Shown here: positions 2,801 through 39,246 of the stretch, one piece after another
Numbering within the stretch: the first letter of the stretch is position 1
How the letters are laid out: each line of letters opens with the position of its first letter
Assembly: GCA_048886305.1 (NCBI GenBank)
Contig: JBHLKV010000004.1
Span: 1 to 43,540, forward strand
Source: Candidatus Hodarchaeota archaeon
Lineage (GTDB): Archaea; Asgardarchaeota; Lokiarchaeia; Sigyniarchaeales; SOKP01
Reading direction: 5' to 3'
DNA: 43,540 bases
Notes under the pieces: model-generated
Database searches by the model: none
The model's input: the letters and a program-made list of their open reading frames with translations, nothing else
What the model was told of the DNA's origin: nothing
Made by a program: the position numbers and the translations under genes

Positions 2801-4120
2801 ATGCTGGATGAGTTAGGTGATTGGAGAAAAACGCATTATACAAAAGAAGTTTCTCCTGAATTAGATGACCAAGAAATCATATTAGGTGGATGGGTTAGAA
2901 ATTATAGAGATTTGGGTGGTTTAAAATTCATAAATCTTCAAGATAAGTACGGAGAACGTCAAATTACTTTAAAAAAAGGTGAAGTTTCTGATGAGCTTTT
3001 TGAAAAAGCCAAGCTTGGATATCAATATTGTATTATGGTTAAAGGTAGAGTTAAAACCTTCAAAAAAGCTCCAGGAGGAGTCGAGATAATCCCCTCAGAG
3101 ATAAAAATCCTAAATAAAACTCCTGAAAAACTTCCTATTGATATGACAGGCGAAACTATATCGGAACTAGATTTGAGATTAAATAATCGACCTTTGGATC
3201 TAAGATCACAGAGAAATCAAGCAATTTTTGATATTAGAGGCCAAGTGTTAAATTCTATTAGAAAATTTTTAACTGAGAGAGACTTTACTGAAATAACAAC
3301 TCCAAAAATAATTGGCTCTGCCACAGAAGGAGGTACAGAGTTATTTCCGATTATGTATTTTGATAAAGAAGCTTTTTTGACACAATCTGCTCAACTTTAT
3401 AAAGAACAACTTAGTGGTGTTTACGAACGAGTTTATGAAATTAGCCCCGCTTTTAGGGCAGAGAAAAGTCGTACAAAGCGACATGTATGTGAAATTTTTA
3501 CTTTAGATGTAGAGATGGCTTTTTCAAATATGTATGATGTTCTAAAGGTATTAGAAGAATTAGTTCATGATGTTATTAAGGATATCAGAGAGAATCAAAT
3601 TACTGCTTTAAAATTTCTAAATATGGAGAATAGAACTATTATTCCTGAAATTCCTTTTCCCAGATATAAATATGATGAGATTCTTGAACTAATAGAAAAG
3701 AAATTTAGTCTCAATATAGAATGGGGTGAAGATATATCAACCGAAGCTTATCGTAAATTAGGCGATGAATTAACAGAATATTATTATATTACTCACTGGC
3801 CGATGATGATAAAGCCATTTTATATTTTACCTTCAAAAGATCCAAAATATAGCGAATCTTTCGACCTCCAAATGGGATGGCTTGAATTAACTTCAGGTGG
3901 AACGCGAGTTCATAATAAAGATCAGTTAATTGCTGCACTTGAATCTAAAGGCTTAACCTCTCTATCCTTTAAGTCCCACCTTAAAGCATTTGATTTCGGA
4001 ATGCCTCCTCATGCCGGATTTGGCTTAGGAATAGACCGTTGGATTACGTTCTTATGCGGGTTAGATGATATTCGGGAATCAATACTTTATCCACGTACTC
4101 CAGATCGCTTAACTCCTTAG
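2801..4120 (+). CDS. aspS: Aspartate--tRNA ligase (archaeal type)
   Basis: OB-fold [20 protein letters not shown], motif 2 FRAEKS..RH, motif 3 [15 protein letters not shown]-terminal [10 protein letters not shown]. Confidence 0.96.
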
Positions 4121-4163
4121 TTTATTAAAATCTAAAATTACTAACATTGTCAATATTTAAATT

Positions 4164-5087
4164 ATGAGTGAAGATTATATTCAAGATTATATTAAGGCTG
4201 GAAAAGCAGTAATAGCTGCCAAGAAGTTAGCAAGGAAACTCATTCATCCGGGGGCTTTATTTTTAGAAATTGCTAATAATTGCGAAGCTGAAATAATAAA
4301 AAACGGGGCAAGTTTATCCTTTCCTATTAATATGTCTTTAAATGAGATAGCTGCTCATTATAGCCCACCAATTGATGATGATACTATTGTTCCAGAAAGT
4401 GGTTTGCTAAAAATTGATTTGGGGGCTCATTATAATGGATATATTGCAGATTCTGCTTTTACAGTTAATATTGATGAAGATCCAAAGCTACAAAATTATA
4501 TTGATGCCGCAGAAGAAGGTCTTGAAGCTGCAATTGCGCTCTTTAAGCCAGGCACTAAATTATATGAGTTAGGAGGTGCAATTGAAGAAAAAATTAAAAA
4601 TTTTGGTTTAAAACCAATTAGAAATCTTGGTGGTCATGAATTAAAGCAATATAATCTCCATGCAGGTTCATTTATACCAAATTATTTAGAAAAAAGTCAT
4701 AACAATATATTAAAAGCCGGAGATGCATTTGCATGTGAACCATTCGCAACTTCAGGAGAAGGATTTGTTGAAAATGGAAAACATGCCTATATCTATCGAT
4801 TTGTGAAAAGAGTTAAGAAAAATATGTCCTATGAGCTACAAAACTATATGAATAAAATTGAACAAAATTTCAAACGACTTCCATTTTCTCCAAGATGGAT
4901 CGAAAATAGCAATTTAATACCTAAGAGTAGAATAATGAGAATTATCGTTGATGATTTTCAAAACAAATATCATATCCTCGATAAATATCCTATTTTAATA
5001 GAAAGAAGACGTGAACCAGTAGCTCAACAAGAACATACAATAGTAATTGATTGGGAAGGGAATACAATTGTCACCACTAAAGAATGA
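4164..5087 (+). CDS. map: Type II methionine aminopeptidase
   Basis: SFPINMSLNEIAAHY, KIDLGAHYNGYIADSAFT, NLGGH, EPF, AQQEHT metal-ligand motifs. Confidence 0.95.
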   Translation: MSEDYIQDYIKAGKAVIAAKKLARKLIHPGALFLEIANNCEAEIIKNGASLSFPINMSLNEIAAHYSPPIDDDTIVPESGLLKIDLGAHYNGYIADSAFTVNIDEDPKLQNYIDAAEEGLEAAIALFKPGTKLYELGGAIEEKIKNFGLKPIRNLGGHELKQYNLHAGSFIPNYLEKSHNNILKAGDAFACEPFATSGEGFVENGKHAYIYRFVKRVKKNMSYELQNYMNKIEQNFKRLPFSPRWIENSNLIPKSRIMRIIVDDFQNKYHILDKYPILIERRREPVAQQEHTIVIDWEGNTIVTTKE

Positions 5088-6892: not shown

Positions 6893-7678
6893 ATGGCTAT
6901 TTCGAGAAGTCTATCGATTGTGTTTCTGCTATTTTATGTTAGCGTTATAATATATTTGTTATTGTATTTATTTGTCCCCGATTTTCAAGAGGTTATAAAT
7001 AATTCAAGACAAAAATTAGCTTACATAACAGAGGGTACAAATTATTTTTGGGCACTTTTTATCTCCCTGTTTATATGTCTTCTTGGTAGTGCTAGTATCG
7101 GATTTCCTGTGCCTTTTCCCTTTATCCTCTTTTTCTTTTCAAATTCAATCATCGCAGAATTTGGGGGTAGTGGTGTAATACTAATCTTTGGACTTGGGAT
7201 CGCTGGTGGGTTAGGTGCTGCATTAGGCGAACTTACAAGTTTTTTATTGGGAAGAGGAGCTCAGAAAATTAGTTCTATATCTGAATCAAAAACTTTAGAA
7301 AATGTTCAGGGGTTTGGTAGATTAGTCTTAGAGCATCCAAAAAGTATGTATCTATATATATTTATTGCGGCAGCTCTTCCAATTCCGGATGATCCCCTAT
7401 GGATAGCTTTAGGAATGTCAAAGGAAAAAATAAATTTTGTTAAGTGCCTTCTTTTTGGATGGATTGGTAAAAATGTTACGACCTTATTTTATGTTTTTCT
7501 CCCCATTTTGATTAATTTAGGAATAGCTGCTTCTGAAGTCGAGCTTAATGATGTTTCAAGCGTTATAACTGAAGCATTAATGCTTATAGCTACTCTTACA
7601 ATTATGTTTTTTATTTTGGCATTTGATTGGAATAAGTTTATTGATAAAAGAAGTAAAACCAAAGCTAAAGAGGATTAA
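6893..7678 (+). CDS. DedA/VTT (SNARE-associated) family membrane protein
   Basis: GGLGAALGELTSFLLGRG and AALPIPDDPLWIALG motifs; multiple TM segments. Confidence 0.8.
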   Translation: MAISRSLSIVFLLFYVSVIIYLLLYLFVPDFQEVINNSRQKLAYITEGTNYFWALFISLFICLLGSASIGFPVPFPFILFFFSNSIIAEFGGSGVILIFGLGIAGGLGAALGELTSFLLGRGAQKISSISESKTLENVQGFGRLVLEHPKSMYLYIFIAAALPIPDDPLWIALGMSKEKINFVKCLLFGWIGKNVTTLFYVFLPILINLGIAASEVELNDVSSVITEALMLIATLTIMFFILAFDWNKFIDKRSKTKAKED

Positions 7679-8414: not shown

Positions 8415-9536
8415 TTAGGCGAGAAAATTTAGTTCTGCTCTTGAATTTAGCTCTTCCAATACTTTATTATATTCAGAACTTCTTTCTTCAAAATATTCGA
8501 TTACTTTTCTTTCATCAGTATCTAAGTAATCATAATAGGGAAATATTACCTCTATACGTTTAGAAAAATCATTCATTAATCGTTCGTACCATTCATTAGG
8601 TTTTTTCAACAAATTTTGGACTTTTTTTCGCAGTTTTTCTTTTCGTATTTCATATTTTTCTTGCTCATTATTTTCGATTAACTTATCTAATTCATCATAA
8701 ATATCGGATATTACATTCTCTAATTTTTCCCTAAATTTAGGAATTCGATATGATTTTTTGAAAAAAGCAGGATCCCATTCATATAGATAACGTTCATCCT
8801 CTCCAGCCTCTTGTTCATCGTCAGTTACTATTATATCTTCTCTGGGTACTAAAATTAATCCAAAATTTCTTTGTAATTGAGCCAATGCTTTCTTACGGAG
8901 AATTTCATCAATATAATTGATCTCATCTATTACTTTATCCATGTTTTTATTGATTTTTTCCACTTCTTTTTCAGAATTTTTGAGCATTACTTCTTTCTTT
9001 AACTCATATTTCAATTCGATAAGATTATAAGTAGAAGAAATGCCCCTATGTGGGTCCTTTAATCTTAACCCTGCTATTCCTAAATAATGTGCATCTGATT
9101 TTGTTTCACAATGATCAAAGACTAATCCAAGAGCATACGGATTCGGGATTTGGTAACCTAATTGAGTCATACAGTCAATTGGAGAATAAAAAAAACCAAA
9201 ACCAGGATGTGTGTGCCACCAACCAATTATAAAGTCATTTCTTCTATCTTGAATAGATCTTTCAAAGACGGAGGCATCTATCTGTGCCATATCAACGTAT
9301 TGTTTATTTTCATATTTTACTCCTGCTCTATCTCCAACTACCATTGGAATTGCATCTTTTACTATAACTTCAGCTTCATTTTCTATTGATCCTATTAAAA
9401 TACCATATACTTCTCGCCATTTACTCTCATCTAAACGATCATTTGCATATCTTATAGCATAACCATAAATTTTTCTATATGCTTTATATGTCAAACGAGC
9501 AGGTGAATAGTAAGGATCAATCTTTTTCTTTTTCAT
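8415..9536 (-). CDS. MPN+/JAMM metalloisopeptidase (Rpn11/CSN5-like) with helical C-terminus
   Basis: EVYGILIG and IIGWWHTHPGFGFFYSPIDCMTQ give an intact E...HxH-x7-SxxD motif. Confidence 0.88.
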   Translation of the reverse strand: MKKKKIDPYYSPARLTYKAYRKIYGYAIRYANDRLDESKWREVYGILIGSIENEAEVIVKDAIPMVVGDRAGVKYENKQYVDMAQIDASVFERSIQDRRNDFIIGWWHTHPGFGFFYSPIDCMTQLGYQIPNPYALGLVFDHCETKSDAHYLGIAGLRLKDPHRGISSTYNLIELKYELKKEVMLKNSEKEVEKINKNMDKVIDEINYIDEILRKKALAQLQRNFGLILVPREDIIVTDDEQEAGEDERYLYEWDPAFFKKSYRIPKFREKLENVISDIYDELDKLIENNEQEKYEIRKEKLRKKVQNLLKKPNEWYERLMNDFSKRIEVIFPYYDYLDTDERKVIEYFEERSSEYNKVLEELNSRAELNFLA

Positions 9537-9648
9537 TATTTCTTTTTTTTTTAAAACTTTATTTCTTATTCTATATAGAATTTAAATAAAGATTTCATAT
9601 ATAAATTGTTTTAATGTAAAAAATCTTTTTAAAAAAAAGAGTTTAGAC

Positions 9649-10194
9649 ATGAAAAGAGTTGTAGCTATTTGCGGTCTTCCCGGTGCTGGTAAAAGTACAG
9701 CGATAGATGCTATAAAAAATTTAGGATCTGTTATAATAATGGGTGATATTATTAGAAATGAGGCAAAGAAAAATAACCTTGAACCTACAAGTGAAAATTT
9801 AGGTAAAATTGCCAAGGAATTAAGAATAAAATACGGTCCTAATATTATTGCTGAAAAATGTGTAGAGTTAATAAAGAATCAATCTAATGACATAATATTT
9901 ATTGATGGATTGAGATCTATGGCTGAGGTAAAGGTTTTTCGAAAACACTGGAAATTCCCTATAATTGCAATTGCTCTAGAAGAGAAAGCACGATTTAAAA
10001 GACTTTTTGAAAGAGCTCGAAGTGATGATCCAAAAAATATTGATGATTTGAAAGGGAGAGACAAAAGAGAAATTGAATTTGGTCTTGAAGAGGTTTTAGA
10101 TAATGCGGATTACACCATTAAAAATGATTCAACGAGAGAAGATCTTAAAGAAAGAATTAGAAAATTAGTTTTAGATTTAATTCATAATTATTAA
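9649..10194 (+). CDS. UPF0200 / dephospho-CoA kinase-like P-loop kinase
   Basis: GLPGAGKST Walker A, MGDIIR, IDGLRS..E, RDKREIEFG. Confidence 0.8.
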   Translation: MKRVVAICGLPGAGKSTAIDAIKNLGSVIIMGDIIRNEAKKNNLEPTSENLGKIAKELRIKYGPNIIAEKCVELIKNQSNDIIFIDGLRSMAEVKVFRKHWKFPIIAIALEEKARFKRLFERARSDDPKNIDDLKGRDKREIEFGLEEVLDNADYTIKNDSTREDLKERIRKLVLDLIHNY

Positions 10195-10206
10195 GGAAAA
10201 GATATT

Positions 10207-11115
10207 CTATTTTAAATAATCTACAATTATTTTTGCTAAAGAAACTGTACTTACTTCATTGTCAATTGAGTCAGTACCAATTATTTTATCTGCGCCTGCT
10301 TTCAATATTCTATATTTAGCTTGATCTAACAATAATGCGTGCGTAGCTACAGCATAAATTCTATTGGCACCACTTTCTCTTGCTAATTTAATTGCTGTTG
10401 CCATAGTACCTCCTGTTGCAATAATATCGTCAGAAATGACAACATCTTTCCCTTTAAGACTCAACTTTCCTGACATCTTAATTTCACCAGTTTTAACATC
10501 TCTACTTTTCTCAAACATGTCAACAGGAATATTTTCTCCAAAATATTTTGCAAAAGCTTTTGATCTCTCAATTGCTCCTTTATCAGGTGATACCACAACG
10601 ATATCTTCTGCTCCAAGAGCCTTTATATTATCTGCTAGAAGCTTCATTGAGTCAATATTAATTGCTTTGCATGAGCATTCCTCTAAAACCATTGGAGCAT
10701 GAGCATCTACAGTATAAAATTCATCTATTCCTAAGGAATTAATAAGATGTATAATAACATTACCAAATTGAGTTTCTCCTGGCCGAAATATTTTATCTTG
10801 ACGAGCATACGCAAGATAGGGGACAACAACAATAATCTTTTCTGCTCCCATACGTTTAACAGAACTAATCATCATAAAAAGTTCCATTAATCTTGCATTT
10901 TGATTGTAGTTTGCACTAGGTCCCGTTGATTGTACAATAATAACTTCTTTTCCCGCAATTATAGTCTCATCTTCTATATTAATTCTTAGGTAGTTTTCCC
11001 CATCTGGAAATTTCTTAACTTCAGCATTTATTGCTTCGATTTCTAATTCTTTTGCGATCTTTACTCCAAGTAATTGAGATGCGGGTCCAACAATTAATAA
11101 ACGATTTCTTTCCAT
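10207..11115 (-). CDS. prs: Ribose-phosphate pyrophosphokinase
   Basis: KFPDGE, PYLAYARQDK, VSPDKGA, DDIIATGGTM. Confidence 0.95.
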   Translation of the reverse strand: MERNRLLIVGPASQLLGVKIAKELEIEAINAEVKKFPDGENYLRINIEDETIIAGKEVIIVQSTGPSANYNQNARLMELFMMISSVKRMGAEKIIVVVPYLAYARQDKIFRPGETQFGNVIIHLINSLGIDEFYTVDAHAPMVLEECSCKAINIDSMKLLADNIKALGAEDIVVVSPDKGAIERSKAFAKYFGENIPVDMFEKSRDVKTGEIKMSGKLSLKGKDVVISDDIIATGGTMATAIKLARESGANRIYAVATHALLLDQAKYRILKAGADKIIGTDSIDNEVSTVSLAKIIVDYLK

Positions 11116-13300: not shown

Positions 13301-14533
13301 CTACTTTTTTGCTAGTTTTTCTATAGCAGATTCAATCATGTTTAATTTAATGGAGTATTTTTCCATCAGTTCAGCGAACTTATCAATACCTATTTCTTTA
13401 TTTTCTTTTAATAGTTTTAACTCGTTTATGGTTCTAACTATTGCTGCTCTCTTATCTGCTAATTGTTCACGTTTACTGTATGGTATTTTCTGTTCTAATT
13501 TTTTTCTCTGAAAAGATTTGAATCTCTTTATATTAAGGTCTTTTGGCACAAATTTTGTTAAATAAATTGTTGATTTTGGTACAAATGGGGCTAAATTCTC
13601 TGGAATTATTATTATAGGTTCTGGATCTTGGATTTTTTTAATATCTTCATACTCTAATTGTTCCACATCACTCTCTTTAAGATTTTCCTTCACTATTGAC
13701 AGATTTAAATCTATATTTTCTTTTTCTTCACTTGAAATTGAAAGATTTTGAACCATATTTTCCCAAATATCTTTTGCTTTTATAAAATACCAAAGTGCTT
13801 TTTGTTGCAGTTTTCTAACTTTCTCTTGATTTATGTCTGTTAGTGAGGATTCTAATGATGCTTTAGCTTTAAGAGAGCATGATTTTCCCATATCATAATG
13901 AAATTGTGCTCTTATTTGTTGTTTTTTTTTCTCTTCATGCTTTTTTAAATAGAATAAACGTTTTGATAAAGCAGAAAGTCCTGAATATAATTTTGAAGCA
14001 AAATATATATTATTATTTTTTTCTTCCTGTAAGGCTGAGATGCTTTGAGCTAAAATTCTAGCTTCCTCAGAATTTAATTCAAGATTATCAGAAGACAATG
14101 CTATGCCTTTTTCATTTTGATAAATAGCTGCTGCGGTAAAATATGCTGCAGTTTTATAAATCTTACTACATTCAGTCATAGCAACAATAGAATTTTCCCA
14201 TTCTTCATCTTCTTCAAATCTTTCGGAAAGTTGGGAGTAGGCTCTTGCCATAATCCATAATACTCTTCCACACTCAAACATTATATCTTGAATTTGAATT
14301 TCTCGATTCTCAATCGGATCATAAAAAACAGGAGTAATATCTAGTTCCTTTAAAATTCTTATATGGTTTTCACTCTCGTAGTTAATATTCAATATTTTAG
14401 TATATTCTTGAATATAATTTAGATCATCTAAATTAAAGCGTTCATCTTCTTTTTCTAATGCGTCTTCTATTTTTTTAATCGAGAAGTGAAGATACCTAAT
14501 ACGTTGCATTAGTTCATCTGGAAAAAAAGACAT
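13301..14533 (-). CDS. Probable Bro1-like domain protein with C-terminal steadiness-box-like helical hairpin
   Basis: FYDPI...DIMFECGRVLWIMARAYSQL resembles Bro1 F.WYD...SL.FEK..VLFN.AAL.SQ; ARILAQ and ASKL resemble LAQAQE and IAKL. C-terminal AIVRTINEL...EIGIDKF resembles the TSG101/Vps23 SB. By-eye comparison only. Confidence 0.55.
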   Translation of the reverse strand: MSFFPDELMQRIRYLHFSIKKIEDALEKEDERFNLDDLNYIQEYTKILNINYESENHIRILKELDITPVFYDPIENREIQIQDIMFECGRVLWIMARAYSQLSERFEEDEEWENSIVAMTECSKIYKTAAYFTAAAIYQNEKGIALSSDNLELNSEEARILAQSISALQEEKNNNIYFASKLYSGLSALSKRLFYLKKHEEKKKQQIRAQFHYDMGKSCSLKAKASLESSLTDINQEKVRKLQQKALWYFIKAKDIWENMVQNLSISSEEKENIDLNLSIVKENLKESDVEQLEYEDIKKIQDPEPIIIIPENLAPFVPKSTIYLTKFVPKDLNIKRFKSFQRKKLEQKIPYSKREQLADKRAAIVRTINELKLLKENKEIGIDKFAELMEKYSIKLNMIESAIEKLAKK

Positions 14534-21682: not shown

Positions 21683-22204
21683 TTGCAATCCAACCAATAT
21701 AAGTTCAAGATAACACTTTTCGGTCCGGGTGGTGTAGGAAAAACGTCACTGCTTCTCCGTTATATTAAGGATTACTTTAGTGATGATTTAAAAAAAACCA
21801 TTGGAAGTAATTTTCTGATCAAAGATGTTGAAATCGAAGGGAAACAAGTTCGCCTTCTCCTATGGGATATTGGTGGTCAACCGCAATTCCACAAACTTCG
21901 TACAATTTATTTTAAAGGAAGTAATGGAGCATTAGGGGTTTTTGATTTATCTTCAAGTCAATCACTTTTAAAAATTCCCGGCTGGATAAGTTCTATAAAG
22001 AAATCAGTAAAAAGAACAATTCCAATGATCCTATTAGGAAATAAGCTTGATCTAGATAGAGATGTTGATAAAGCAGAAGCTGAGGATTTATCTAAAAGAC
22101 TAGGATGTGAGTATTTAGAAACTTCAGCAAAAACAGGAGAAAATGTTGAACAAGCTTTTGAATCAATTGCTAAAGCATGCTTAAGCAGTGCTCTTTCTGA
22201 ATAA
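21683..22204 (+). CDS. Rab-like small GTPase (Ras superfamily)
   Basis: G1 GPGGVGKT, G2 TIG, G3 WDIGGQ, G4 NKLD, G5 ETSAK. Confidence 0.95.
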   Translation: MQSNQYKFKITLFGPGGVGKTSLLLRYIKDYFSDDLKKTIGSNFLIKDVEIEGKQVRLLLWDIGGQPQFHKLRTIYFKGSNGALGVFDLSSSQSLLKIPGWISSIKKSVKRTIPMILLGNKLDLDRDVDKAEAEDLSKRLGCEYLETSAKTGENVEQAFESIAKACLSSALSE

Positions 22205-25056: not shown

Positions 25057-25677
25057 ATGACACTTAAAAATATTTTTTCAGAATTAACTGAATCATTAGA
25101 CAAATTAGATCTCGATAGAGAAGAGATTTTAAAAATATCTCGAATTATAATTCGAGATTGTGGTATTGCGATAAAGTCAATCCATCGGAAAGAATTCGAT
25201 CAATATAAGGTAAAAATACAATCGGTAAAAAATAATCATGAGAAACTGACAATATTGGTGAATAAAAGCCTTGGTATTTTTTATAAATACTTGAAAACAC
25301 CGGAACAAGAATATGCAGAAGCAGTTGCGTTTTACGCAATTACCTTAAAAAAAGATCTCCCTTCTCCTAGTGAAATGAAAATTGATCCATTAAATTTTGC
25401 ATTAGGGTTAGCTGATGTTGTAGGCGAACTACGGAGATATGCATTAGATAATATAAGAGATTCTCAAGTGGAAGATCTCAATGAAATATTAGAAAATATG
25501 GATGATATTTATTCTAATTTATTTTCACTCGATTATCCTTCAGGATTAATACAAGATTTAAGACAAAAAACTGATCGAGCAAGATTGATTATTGAAAAAA
25601 CTAGAGGAGATATATCAATATCTCTTCAGATGAATGATCTAAAAAGATGTATTCAAGATAATGTAAAGGAGGATTAA
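25057..25677 (+). CDS. Translin/TRAX family protein
   Basis: REEILKISR, QEYAEA, LGLADVVGELRR, LRQKTD. Confidence 0.88.
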   Translation: MTLKNIFSELTESLDKLDLDREEILKISRIIIRDCGIAIKSIHRKEFDQYKVKIQSVKNNHEKLTILVNKSLGIFYKYLKTPEQEYAEAVAFYAITLKKDLPSPSEMKIDPLNFALGLADVVGELRRYALDNIRDSQVEDLNEILENMDDIYSNLFSLDYPSGLIQDLRQKTDRARLIIEKTRGDISISLQMNDLKRCIQDNVKED

Positions 25678-38658: not shown

Positions 38659-39246
38659 TCAAAGTCTTATGTAAAAATAGGTTGAGACCTCTTTATTTCC
38701 CTTCTTCTGTTTAAGTTCATATTCATGCTTTAAATACGAATTCAAACCCTCTAAAGGATATTTGTGAGATATAACAATTGCATCCTTTTTTGCTGTAGAA
38801 AACACATGTTTTAAGTTTTTCTGCATTTTGGGAAAGGAATAGATATATATAAAATCAAATTTTTTCAAATTTTTTTGATAAAGATCTGTTAATTCGATTT
38901 TAATATTTTTTGCTATTTTTTTTTTATATTTCACTTTTAATATTTCAATTTTTTTTTTGGCTTCTTTAATCAAATTTGGATTAATTTCTATTCCAAAAGA
39001 TTTTATACCATAATTTAAAGCAGAATATATAATGACCGTGGCAACACCCGCTCCTAAATCAATCAGTTTTTGATTAGAGTTTTTTATTAAACCAAATCTA
39101 TCCTTTAGGATTTGAAATATTGCTTTTAAAAGGTCTGGTGAGGTTTCTAAGAAGGGCAAATCCAATTGAGAGATAAAATTTGACCAAATTATTCTGGGCA
39201 TAGAAGATCTACTAAATTTTTTTATATTTTTCCCAATCTCATTCAT
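38659..39246 (-). CDS. Class I SAM-dependent methyltransferase (FAM173/DOT1-like small MTase)
   Basis: LPFLET, LIDLGAG, GIEINP, DFIYIY, VISHKYP. Confidence 0.75.
   Translation of the reverse strand: MNEIGKNIKKFSRSSMPRIIWSNFISQLDLPFLETSPDLLKAIFQILKDRFGLIKNSNQKLIDLGAGVATVIIYSALNYGIKSFGIEINPNLIKEAKKKIEILKVKYKKKIAKNIKIELTDLYQKNLKKFDFIYIYSFPKMQKNLKHVFSTAKKDAIVISHKYPLEGLNSYLKHEYELKQKKGNKEVSTYFYIRL

Follow-up and report, generated by a model that had tools for sequence, protein, structure and literature searches.

A predicted Bro1-fold protein with a C-terminal steadiness-box-type hairpin in an Asgard archaeon

[quoted passage not shown] Whether archaea encode a counterpart of this adaptor is the question raised by one gene on a 43,540-nucleotide stretch of Candidatus Hodarchaeota archaeon DNA (contig JBHLKV010000004.1 of assembly GCA_048886305.1; the whole stretch is hereafter called the window). 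Its 410-residue product, P0001, had been read in an earlier note as a Bro1 domain fused to an ESCRT-I steadiness box (SB), forming a single-chain bridge from ESCRT-I to ESCRT-III that bypasses ESCRT-II. In the analysis reported here, structure prediction strongly supported a very divergent Bro1 domain in the N-terminal part of P0001, and profile comparisons moderately supported an SB-type hairpin at its C terminus. To the reading that this protein is an adaptor acting on ESCRT-III, we assign a probability of roughly one half.

P0001 is encoded by a complete frame (Table 1) in a window of about 28% G+C. A database search returned 691 proteins at E ≤ 1e-3, the best 120 of the 691 being 74-94% identical to P0001 and 363-432 amino acids (aa) long. 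Among the matches listed, the relatives that bore a name were called 'hypothetical protein', came from metagenome-assembled genomes and were mostly labelled Promethearchaeota or Lokiarchaeota. A HMMER scan of 1.84 billion cluster representatives yielded 55 relatives, of which 27 lay at E ≤ 1e-30, and tblastn detected a single copy of the gene in its own genome. The gene is clearly real and under strong purifying constraint. Inside it, on the antisense strand, are two open reading frames (ORFs; 71 and 60 codons; Table 1), which are probably chance frames or by-products of an AT-rich coding strand. The motifs on which the earlier note had based its reading were all found in the translation, namely, FYDPI (residues 70-74), DIMFECGRVLW (83-93), ARAYSQL (96-102), SKIYKTAAYF (123-132), LSSDNL (146-151), RILAQ (159-163) and ASKL (179-182), together with the Pro-rich (303-319) and C-terminal (364-396) stretches that it had quoted. 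Throughout, A1 denotes an alignment of 25 relatives of P0001, A2 the family profile, f1 the taxonomic family of the window's genome, and f3 its sister family.

Fold of the N-terminal domain

P0001 was modelled by AlphaFold2 without templates from an alignment of 25 sequences, and the model reached a predicted local distance difference test score (pLDDT) of 87.3 and a predicted template modelling score (pTM) of 0.74. Its N-terminal part consists of helices at residues 6-27, 35-48 and 57-63, a beta hairpin at 69-72/77-80, and seven later long helices (84-108, 112-135, 148-172, 176-196, 201-228, 236-263 and 268-286). By predicted structure, this part thus has the helical solenoid, the N-terminal beta element and the extended end of a Bro1 fold. 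When the model was compared by Foldseek with 350,542 Protein Data Bank (PDB) chains, 21 matches were obtained at E ≤ 1e-3. Among the matches listed, ranks 1-20 (17 rows) were Bro1 domains only, at E 9.6e-7 to 1.3e-4, with yeast Bro1 at the top (E 9.6e-7), followed by ALIX, BROX and HD-PTP; the first non-Bro1 row listed was a designed helical repeat at E 9.4e-3.

Structural superposition by VIA-align gave a similar result. All 16 of the 16 solved Bro1-domain entries aligned with the model at Z 20.8-22.8, and for 15 of them the root-mean-square deviation (rmsd) was 3.9-4.6 over 277-299 residues; for full-length ALIX (2oev) the rmsd was 33.9 over 342 residues, in an alignment that extends past the Bro1 domain. 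Model residues 1 to 318-321 corresponded to residues ~19-24 to 345-362 of the Bro1 chains. The best unrelated fold, SRP68-RBD, reached Z 12.2, and tetratricopeptide repeat (TPR) proteins such as sNASP and LGN reached about 10-11. The earlier note had expected a fold search with the N terminus to return BRO1, and Bro1 domains indeed came out on top, with generic TPR folds clearly lower. Its Bro1 call therefore stood as to the fold and had to be corrected as to the extent, which according to the VIA-align ranges is residues 1-320 and not ~70-200.

The same model bears on the Pro-rich segment at residues 299-322, which the earlier note had taken for a linker. This segment is the family's most conserved short stretch, with P306, P311, E312 and P319 invariant and N313 nearly invariant, and the model has no helix or strand there except at residues 295-298. 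Because it lies within the range that VIA-align matched to Bro1 chains, the stretch belongs to the Bro1 fold and not to a linker; in the model it is the terminal extended segment that closes the fold. Elsewhere in the domain, D83, E87, F132, L146, L151, E156, R159, Q163, G185, L186, R192 and W257 are likewise invariant in the family.

Sequence links to Bro1 came from distant relatives. The 405-aa protein P0156, which is collinear with P0001 over residues 18-404 (E 1.5e-21, 26% identity), gave a Pfam BRO1 match of 33.3 bits (E 3.2e-8; cut-off, 35.1) over profile positions 33-208, and PF03097 is also its precomputed Pfam label. Another distant relative, L040, matched Pfam BRO1 at E 5e-4 (19.5 bits). 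A homologue search with P0156 returned only P0156 itself and P0151. In the ESM Atlas, the cluster to which P0001 belongs is automatically named 'putative BRO1 domain-containing protein', and the nearest named clusters are eukaryotic BRO1 (0.85 and 0.84), palC (0.83) and ALIX-like (0.82), scores that lie below 0.9 and are leads only. Taken with the fold comparisons, these data strongly support the model-based assignment of the N-terminal 320 residues of P0001 as a genuine but very divergent Bro1 domain, visible by fold and not by sequence.

Compared with the eukaryotic Bro1-domain proteins (yeast Bro1 and human ALIX, HD-PTP and BROX; PF03097), P0001 is alike in the predicted fold of the whole domain, in its length (~320-360 residues), and in its N-terminal beta hairpin, its TPR-like core of helices and its extended end with Pro residues. 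It differs from them in sequence, being only 11-16% identical to the solved Bro1 domains and below Pfam detection, and in composition, as it has no V domain, Pro-rich C-terminal region, PTP/PDZ module or CAAX box. Unlike the eukaryotic proteins, it carries a 57-residue helical hairpin after the Bro1 domain; moreover, P0001 is archaeal and only a putative binder of ESCRT-III.

Several candidate domain matches were set aside. Those of Profilin (0.0033), DUF5375, HetR_C, Ldh_1_C and one NCBIfam model (0.19) on P0001 were below cut-off and not common to the family, and were attributed to chance. Elsewhere in the phylum, the few weak Pfam BRO1 matches fell outside the family, on L109, L111 and L113, which on inspection are TPR-like and unrelated to it (sole A2 score, E 78), and on L110 and L112, which are different, longer proteins.

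The C-terminal hairpin and its relatives

A connector (residues 323-353), which has the lowest conservation within the C-terminal half, leads from the Bro1-fold domain to the hairpin (Table 1). Residues 350-410 were also folded alone and formed a two-helix hairpin with a pLDDT of 94.9, C-terminal in position and within a length of 55-65 residues. Foldseek returned no match for this hairpin at E ≤ 1e-3. Nine of its top 10 rows were nevertheless chains from the ESCRT-I headpiece or core (E 0.17-0.73, template modelling (TM) scores 0.80-0.90), comprising chains B, G, I, F and H of human 6vme (E 0.17-0.38, TM 0.83-0.88, 23-25% identity) and the yeast chains 2f6m_C, 2caz_A, 2caz_D and 2f66_A; the sole other row was a phage-integrase coiled coil. 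In a VIA-align comparison with 48,161 representative chains, Vps23 came first, with 2caz_D at Z 9.8 (rmsd 1.2), 2p22_A at 9.8 and 2f66_A at 9.7, the rmsd of these leading chains being 1.2-1.4; 6vme_B followed at Z 9.2 with an rmsd of 1.0. The entry name of 2f66_A, 2caz_A and 2p22_A is STP22, that is, Vps23. Near-ties came from a CdvA filament and an archaeal OST1 tail (both at 9.2) and from an integrase coiled coil (at 9.4). The fold check on residues 350-410 thus placed Vps23/TSG101 chains first, as the earlier note had expected, but tied with unrelated coiled-coil hairpins; the structure is therefore consistent with a steadiness box and cannot discriminate.

The sequence comparisons were more informative at the level of the family than for P0001 itself. 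Pfam Vps23_core had no match on P0001 at E ≤ 10; a scan of the own genome at E ≤ 1 gave matches on contigs C11, C54 and C108 and none at the window, and residues 345-410 had no usable match in the ESM Atlas. When profile A2 was run against five genomes of other families, its positions 351-408 alone matched the C-terminal hairpins of other proteins, whose domains were identified by Pfam and by reading of the sequences. These were two proteins (507-515 aa; E 9.8e-7 and 6.5e-4) that combine Zn ribbons and a PH/GRAM-like domain with a coiled coil and the terminal hairpin, a 248-aa UQ_con/UEV protein (E 9.4e-4) on which Vps23_core matched at 4.7e-4 exactly on the hairpin, one CDC48_N protein and one transmembrane protein. 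The five A2-matched hairpins and a homologue from the own genome were assembled into alignment A3. Compared by hhalign, A3 and A2 were related at 96.4%, a partly circular value, as A2 had served to choose five of the six A3 rows. With the same partial circularity, A3 found the window ORF at E 0.0034, rank 5 among the 10,993 ORFs of the own genome, and a Vps28-like N-terminal hairpin at 0.0018.

Because of this circularity, the comparison was rebuilt with hairpins chosen by synteny. The independent profile was made from 24 tails of the gene that is convergent with the ESCRT-IIIB gene in f1 loci and was iterated in the own genome at E ≤ 0.01, where it recruited four hairpin carriers (on C12, C40, C108 and C2) and a weaker, fragmentary match on C190. 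Searched against 11,169 sequences, it matched members of the P0001 family in register, namely, P0176 (2.9e-6), the long form P0124 (4.1e-6), P0151 (2.4e-4), P0155 (3.7e-4) and P0156 (4.9e-4). By hhalign, the independent profile and the family tail were related at 94.7% (P 6.3e-8) over 56 columns, again in register. Taken by subset, f1 members gave 82.8%, long forms 86.0% and three distant members 94.1%, and the controls, five further helical stretches taken from these proteins, gave ≤0.8%. On this profile, 153 family hairpins had a median score of 9.9 bits, compared with 0.9 for 765 shuffled and 2.0 for reversed sequences. Against the PDB, the hairpin class reached yeast Vps23 at E 0.005-0.026. 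When the 10,993 own-genome ORFs were searched with a hidden Markov model of the family hairpin, in which f1 sequences predominated, it found only itself, the next best match being at E 0.11. Matches of the CdvA domain to the hairpin occurred in two of 21 family members (best E 0.021) and were too weak to use.

It is therefore moderately supported that the tail of P0001 is best called 'SB-type', that is, a family-level homologue of the Asgard SB hairpins that has diverged in the short subfamily to which P0001 belongs. The SB-type hairpin module itself is not confined to ESCRT-I. [quoted passage not shown] In the own genome, at least five other proteins end in an SB-type hairpin (C40:6347-8209, C12:20148-21425, C108:1261-2673, C2:14005-14937 and C11:23717-25843); they include a ribophorin I homologue and a Zn-ribbon/PH/coiled-coil protein encoded convergently with ESCRT-IIIB.

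With the ESCRT-I steadiness box (Vps23/TSG101, PF09454, and the hairpins of Vps28 and Vps37), P0001 shares an antiparallel C-terminal hairpin of ~57 residues; the in-register profile link to Asgard SB-type hairpins holds for the family and is weak for the short subfamily alone. Unlike in Vps23/TSG101, this hairpin is joined to a Bro1 domain and not to a UEV domain plus stalk. Asgard multidomain 'SB' proteins end in a hairpin of the same type, an example being the Zn-ribbon/PH/coiled-coil/SB protein (PMC10936438). In the part of that survey which deals with them, SB proteins are proposed to attach to the hairpins of ESCRT-I, partner choice being left to their remaining domains, and the partner domains named there include TPR, Ig-like and HTH/PCI, with Bro1 not among them (Makarova et al. 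2024, PMC10936438).

Distribution, paralogues and the ESCRT genes of the genome

The phylum was surveyed with profile A2 at E ≤ 1e-5. Matches occurred in 137 of 400 genomes: 127 of the 134 f1 genomes had one, and nine were found elsewhere, while the seven f1 genomes lacking a match are 64-93% complete. Surveyed across Asgard genomes, as the earlier note had suggested, the family is thus largely confined to f1, and in most other genomes of the phylum it was not found. Five of the nine non-f1 matches were inspected. Four had a Bro1-like region, followed in two of these by a Zn ribbon instead of the hairpin, and the fifth had the hairpin only, in a different protein. Distant Bro1-like proteins with different ends were observed in other Asgard families (L042, G092:C257; L043, G091:C8; L040, G308:C93; L041, G306:C284). 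In forms of ~375 aa a C-terminal Zn ribbon replaces the hairpin, and 521-aa forms have an additional region at the C terminus as well as an acidic repeat; these distant proteins retain the motif with Pro residues by which the Bro1 fold is closed.

Many f1 genomes have two or three paralogues, including long forms of ~650-730 aa beside the short form, sometimes as tandem pairs. Examples of paralogue pairs are G246:C15:6138-7361 and 8653-9867, G235:C276:554-1777 and 2983-4197, and G236:C26:5901-7124 and 9256-10470. The long forms begin with an HHH_5 helix-hairpin-helix (HhH) module in nine of 13 scanned, followed by a basic low-complexity linker. The own genome has the short form only, with no long paralogue. 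In a quick, midpoint-rooted tree, the short forms made up one clade (Shimodaira-Hasegawa-like approximate likelihood ratio test (SH-aLRT) support, 100) placed among the long forms. The HhH module also heads unrelated proteins of the own genome (C137:3993-5564, C30:2947-4047, C97:3107-3592 and C125:2227-3462), among them an aIF2-gamma-like GTPase, a small Zn-ribbon protein, RadA and one protein that we take, by eye, to be FKBP-like. The N-terminal HhH module looks like a lineage-wide appendage.

As the earlier note had stated, the P0001 gene lies outside an ESCRT gene cluster: none of the 44 scanned window ORFs carries an ESCRT family, and the ESCRT genes are on other contigs. The own genome (94% complete, 293 contigs, 10,993 ORFs) has a full ESCRT set there, on contigs C55, C11, C2 and C26. 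Contig C55 encodes EAP30, Vps25, Vps4 and a CHMP1-3-like ESCRT-IIIA, and contig C2 has a Vps28-like gene. Contig C11 encodes a CHMP4-7-like ESCRT-IIIB, adjoining the gene of the Zn-ribbon/PH/SB protein; this ESCRT-IIIB matched 9fn1_U, deposited as a Vps20/32/60-like protein of ESCRT-III, at E 2.8e-101. Since ESCRT-II is encoded in the genome, any 'bypass' of the kind proposed in the earlier note would run beside ESCRT-II and would not replace it.

The tails of ESCRT-IIIB differ between the two taxonomic families. In f1 (L055-L084) there is an invariant L-x-Y within D-[DE]-L-x-Y-[IL]-[PS]-E, located between helix 5 and the terminal Vps4-binding helix, and the f3 tails (L095-L108) have at that place a different motif of S-L-Y type. 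An f1-specific tail motif would fit a lineage-specific docking site, as a correlation only.

Table 1. Coding regions and domains discussed in the text, in window positions
Feature	Positions	Strand	Basis or detail
Complete coding sequence of P0001, 410 aa + stop	13301..14533	minus	ORF listing and translation; ATG start
Bro1-fold domain (predicted), residues 1-322	13568..14533	minus	AlphaFold2 model, Foldseek, VIA-align
Extended Pro-rich segment, residues 299-322	13568..13639	minus	model, A1 columns, conservation profile
Connector, residues 323-353	13475..13567	minus	short helices 323-327 and 333-343; pLDDT <50 at 344-352
Antiparallel helical hairpin, steadiness-box-like, residues 354-410	13304..13474	minus	helices 354-377 and 383-409
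Antisense ORF, 71 codons	13296..13511	plus	
Antisense ORF, 60 codons	13879..14061	plus	
VTT-domain membrane protein	6893..7678	plus	
JAB/MPN protein	8415..9536	minus	
Ras-family small GTPase	21683..22204	plus	
Translin-family protein	25057..25677	plus	
Small DOT1-like methyltransferase	38659..39246	minus	

Possible role and alternative explanations

By analogy with eukaryotic Bro1 domains and SB hairpins, from which the mechanism is drawn, P0001 may be a Bro1/SB-hairpin adaptor acting on ESCRT-III, to which we give the even odds stated above. P0001 would then be a cytosolic adaptor of two modules, the Bro1 domain (residues 1-322) and the hairpin. The concave face of the Bro1 domain would bind the acidic C-terminal tail of the Snf7/CHMP4-type ESCRT-IIIB encoded on C11; in co-crystals of ALIX, BROX and HD-PTP (3c3o, 3um3 and 5mk2), CHMP4 peptides occupy a site in that face. 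The hairpin would pack against hairpins of the same type, either those of its own copies, giving a dimer, or those of the Vps28-like protein or the Zn-ribbon/PH/coiled-coil/SB protein. In this manner, P0001 could nucleate ESCRT-III assembly, or regulate it, on a membrane site alongside ESCRT-II. The longer paralogues of sister genomes have the same two-module core, preceded by the HhH module and the basic linker. The presence in the own genome of candidate partners, namely, ESCRT-IIIB, ESCRT-IIIA, Vps4, the Vps28-like protein and ESCRT-II, was counted in favor of this role, as were the predicted fold, the BRO1 matches of distant relatives, the family-level hairpin link, the invariant L-x-Y of the f1 ESCRT-IIIB tails and the occurrence of the family in nearly all f1 genomes.

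A number of results weigh against it. No Pfam or NCBIfam model matched P0001 significantly, and Pfam BRO1 matched neither P0001 nor anything else in the own genome at E ≤ 10. The model was touched by only one of the 21 family members scanned (P0156), and its gathering score (35.1 bits) was exceeded in none of the 400 phylum genomes; surveys that use such curated models therefore under-count the family. A PDB sequence search with P0001 gave no matches at E ≤ 10, and PDB searches with P0001 and with profiles A1 and A2 found neither a Bro1 nor an ESCRT-I chain. As a fold, the hairpin is generic: 88 chains reached Z ≥ 8, unrelated ones among them within 1 unit of Vps23. At the sequence level, Vps23_core matched none of 16 family C-terminal sequences at E ≤ 1; the short subfamily of P0001, taken alone, was related to the independent hairpin profile at only 8.2% (P 0.004, in register); the P0001 hairpin itself scored 9.2 bits on that profile; and the independent hairpin profiles, searched against the own genome, recovered neither the window ORF nor the N terminus of the Vps28-like protein.

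Other results that weigh against this role concern context and distribution. The P0001 gene has no ESCRT neighbors; around it lie housekeeping genes for NifU, a hydrolase, phosphoribosyl pyrophosphate (PRPP) synthase, an ATP-grasp enzyme, acyltransferases and tRNA synthetases. It is divergent from the same ATP-grasp gene in other genera too (10 of 10 loci), where both belong to a block that is broadly conserved, and this conserved synteny speaks for vertical inheritance and not for an operon. The hairpin profile matched the solved cytoplasmic domain of archaeal OST1/ribophorin I (8whn) at E 1.6e-8, and the ribophorin I homologue of the own genome (Pfam, 2.3e-11) bears the same hairpin type. 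In the part of PMC11417166 that concerns it, the archaeal OST1 cytoplasmic domain is described as having pulled down ribosomes. In the sister family f3, the Bro1-like family was found in none of 14 genomes at E ≤ 1e-5 and in none of five, three of them closed genomes, at E ≤ 1, whereas ESCRT-IIIB is present in all 14 of the 14 genomes. Because f3 keeps ESCRT-IIIB and the Bro1-like family was not found there, ESCRT-III works in f3 without it.

The genomic setting, the OST1 match with the ribosome pulldown, and the pattern in f3 all favor a different role, in which P0001 is a Bro1-fold scaffold unconnected with ESCRT, its solenoid binding another peptide ligand and its hairpin serving as the general oligomerization or docking module that, in this lineage, occurs on many unrelated proteins. 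The carriers of this hairpin type beyond ESCRT, which comprise the ribophorin I homologue, the CDC48_N protein, the transmembrane protein and several uncharacterized proteins, point the same way. To our knowledge, however, every characterized Bro1 domain binds an ESCRT-III tail, and the fold match of P0001 takes in the whole Bro1 domain, including its terminal extended segment. The hairpin class also takes in Vps28-like and Vps23-like proteins, and ESCRT partners are encoded in the genome. We regard a non-ESCRT scaffold as the main rival explanation, tenable but less likely than not.

A bolder reading concerns the evolution of the pathway. The Bro1/ALIX arm may predate eukaryotes and may first have existed as one polypeptide in which an ESCRT-I-type headpiece hairpin was coupled to a Bro1 recruiter of ESCRT-III, with a longer form bearing a nucleic-acid tether; the separate ESCRT-I and Bro1 inputs of eukaryotes would then descend from this coupled archaeal adaptor. 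We put this forward as a speculation that is unlikely to hold.

The long paralogues bring up a further explanation, in which they, perhaps ancestrally, tether ESCRT-III to nucleic acid through the N-terminal HhH module, as an analogue of CdvA or of chromatin-directed ESCRT recruitment, and the short form has lost the tether. The HHH_5 match lies at the extreme N terminus of the nine full-length long relatives and is followed by the basic linker, and when profile A1 was run against the PDB, only HhH proteins (RadA, Rad51, NusA and L32e) were found, weakly (best E 0.0023) and via the N termini of the long forms. The co-occurrence of long and short forms in many f1 genomes, at times in tandem, and the short-form clade placed among the long ones fit such a loss, and the weak CdvA-domain matches and the CdvA filament tie recall the CdvA analogy. 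On the other side, P0001 has no HhH module and its genome no long paralogue; the tree is a quick, midpoint-rooted one, and DNA binding is putative. The same HhH module heads unrelated proteins in the own genome, such as the aIF2-gamma-like GTPase and RadA, and may have no bearing on ESCRT. This explanation strikes us as quite improbable.

Least probable of all is that convergence or a modelling artefact accounts for the Bro1 resemblance, a generic TPR-like repeat having been drawn toward the Bro1 shape by AlphaFold2: the failure of curated models on P0001, the match of profile A2 in the PDB to only designed consensus TPR (0.0045) and a GCN4 coiled coil (0.067), the modest Foldseek TM-scores (0.36-0.50, rmsd 7-12) and the 25-sequence alignment behind the model would suit it, but the run used no templates, Z was 21-23 to Bro1 against 10-12 to TPR and other helical repeats, the match takes in the non-repeat beta hairpin and terminal extended segment, the Pfam BRO1 matches of two distant relatives are collinear, and the language-model search reached BRO1 clusters independently.

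The idea of an Asgard Bro1 protein is not wholly new. Eme et al. 2023 (PMC10307638) stated that Bro1, a regulator of ESCRT-III, has homologues in Asgard archaea; for Bro1, the main text of that paper names neither an accession or lineage nor an architecture or method. The automatic cluster name 'putative BRO1' likewise precedes this work. According to the main text of the 2024 archaeal ESCRT survey, no Bro1/ALIX orthologue was identifiable in Asgard archaea (PMC10936438). Our literature search, to which the supplements and figures of PMC10307638 and PMC10936438 were external, found no paper characterizing an Asgard Bro1-domain protein. What we did not find in print is the whole-domain fold evidence, the architecture of Bro1 plus SB-type hairpin, the HhH-bearing paralogues and the near-confinement to one taxonomic family.

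An archaeal counterpart of a membrane-remodelling adaptor considered eukaryotic may thus exist, and it is now open to testing. The P0001 family is concrete and well conserved, with defined boundaries, non-eukaryotic architectures (Bro1 plus SB-type hairpin, and HhH-Bro1-hairpin) and a sharp phyletic pattern. Whether a Bro1 route existed before eukaryotes, and how it was wired to ESCRT-I, become questions for ordinary binding and structure experiments.

Elsewhere in the window (Table 1), the small GTPase is of a eukaryote-like type (Pfam Ras, E 1.6e-47), and the JAB/MPN protein of 373 aa, the VTT-domain membrane protein, the DOT1-like methyltransferase and the Translin-family protein are likewise eukaryote-flavoured.

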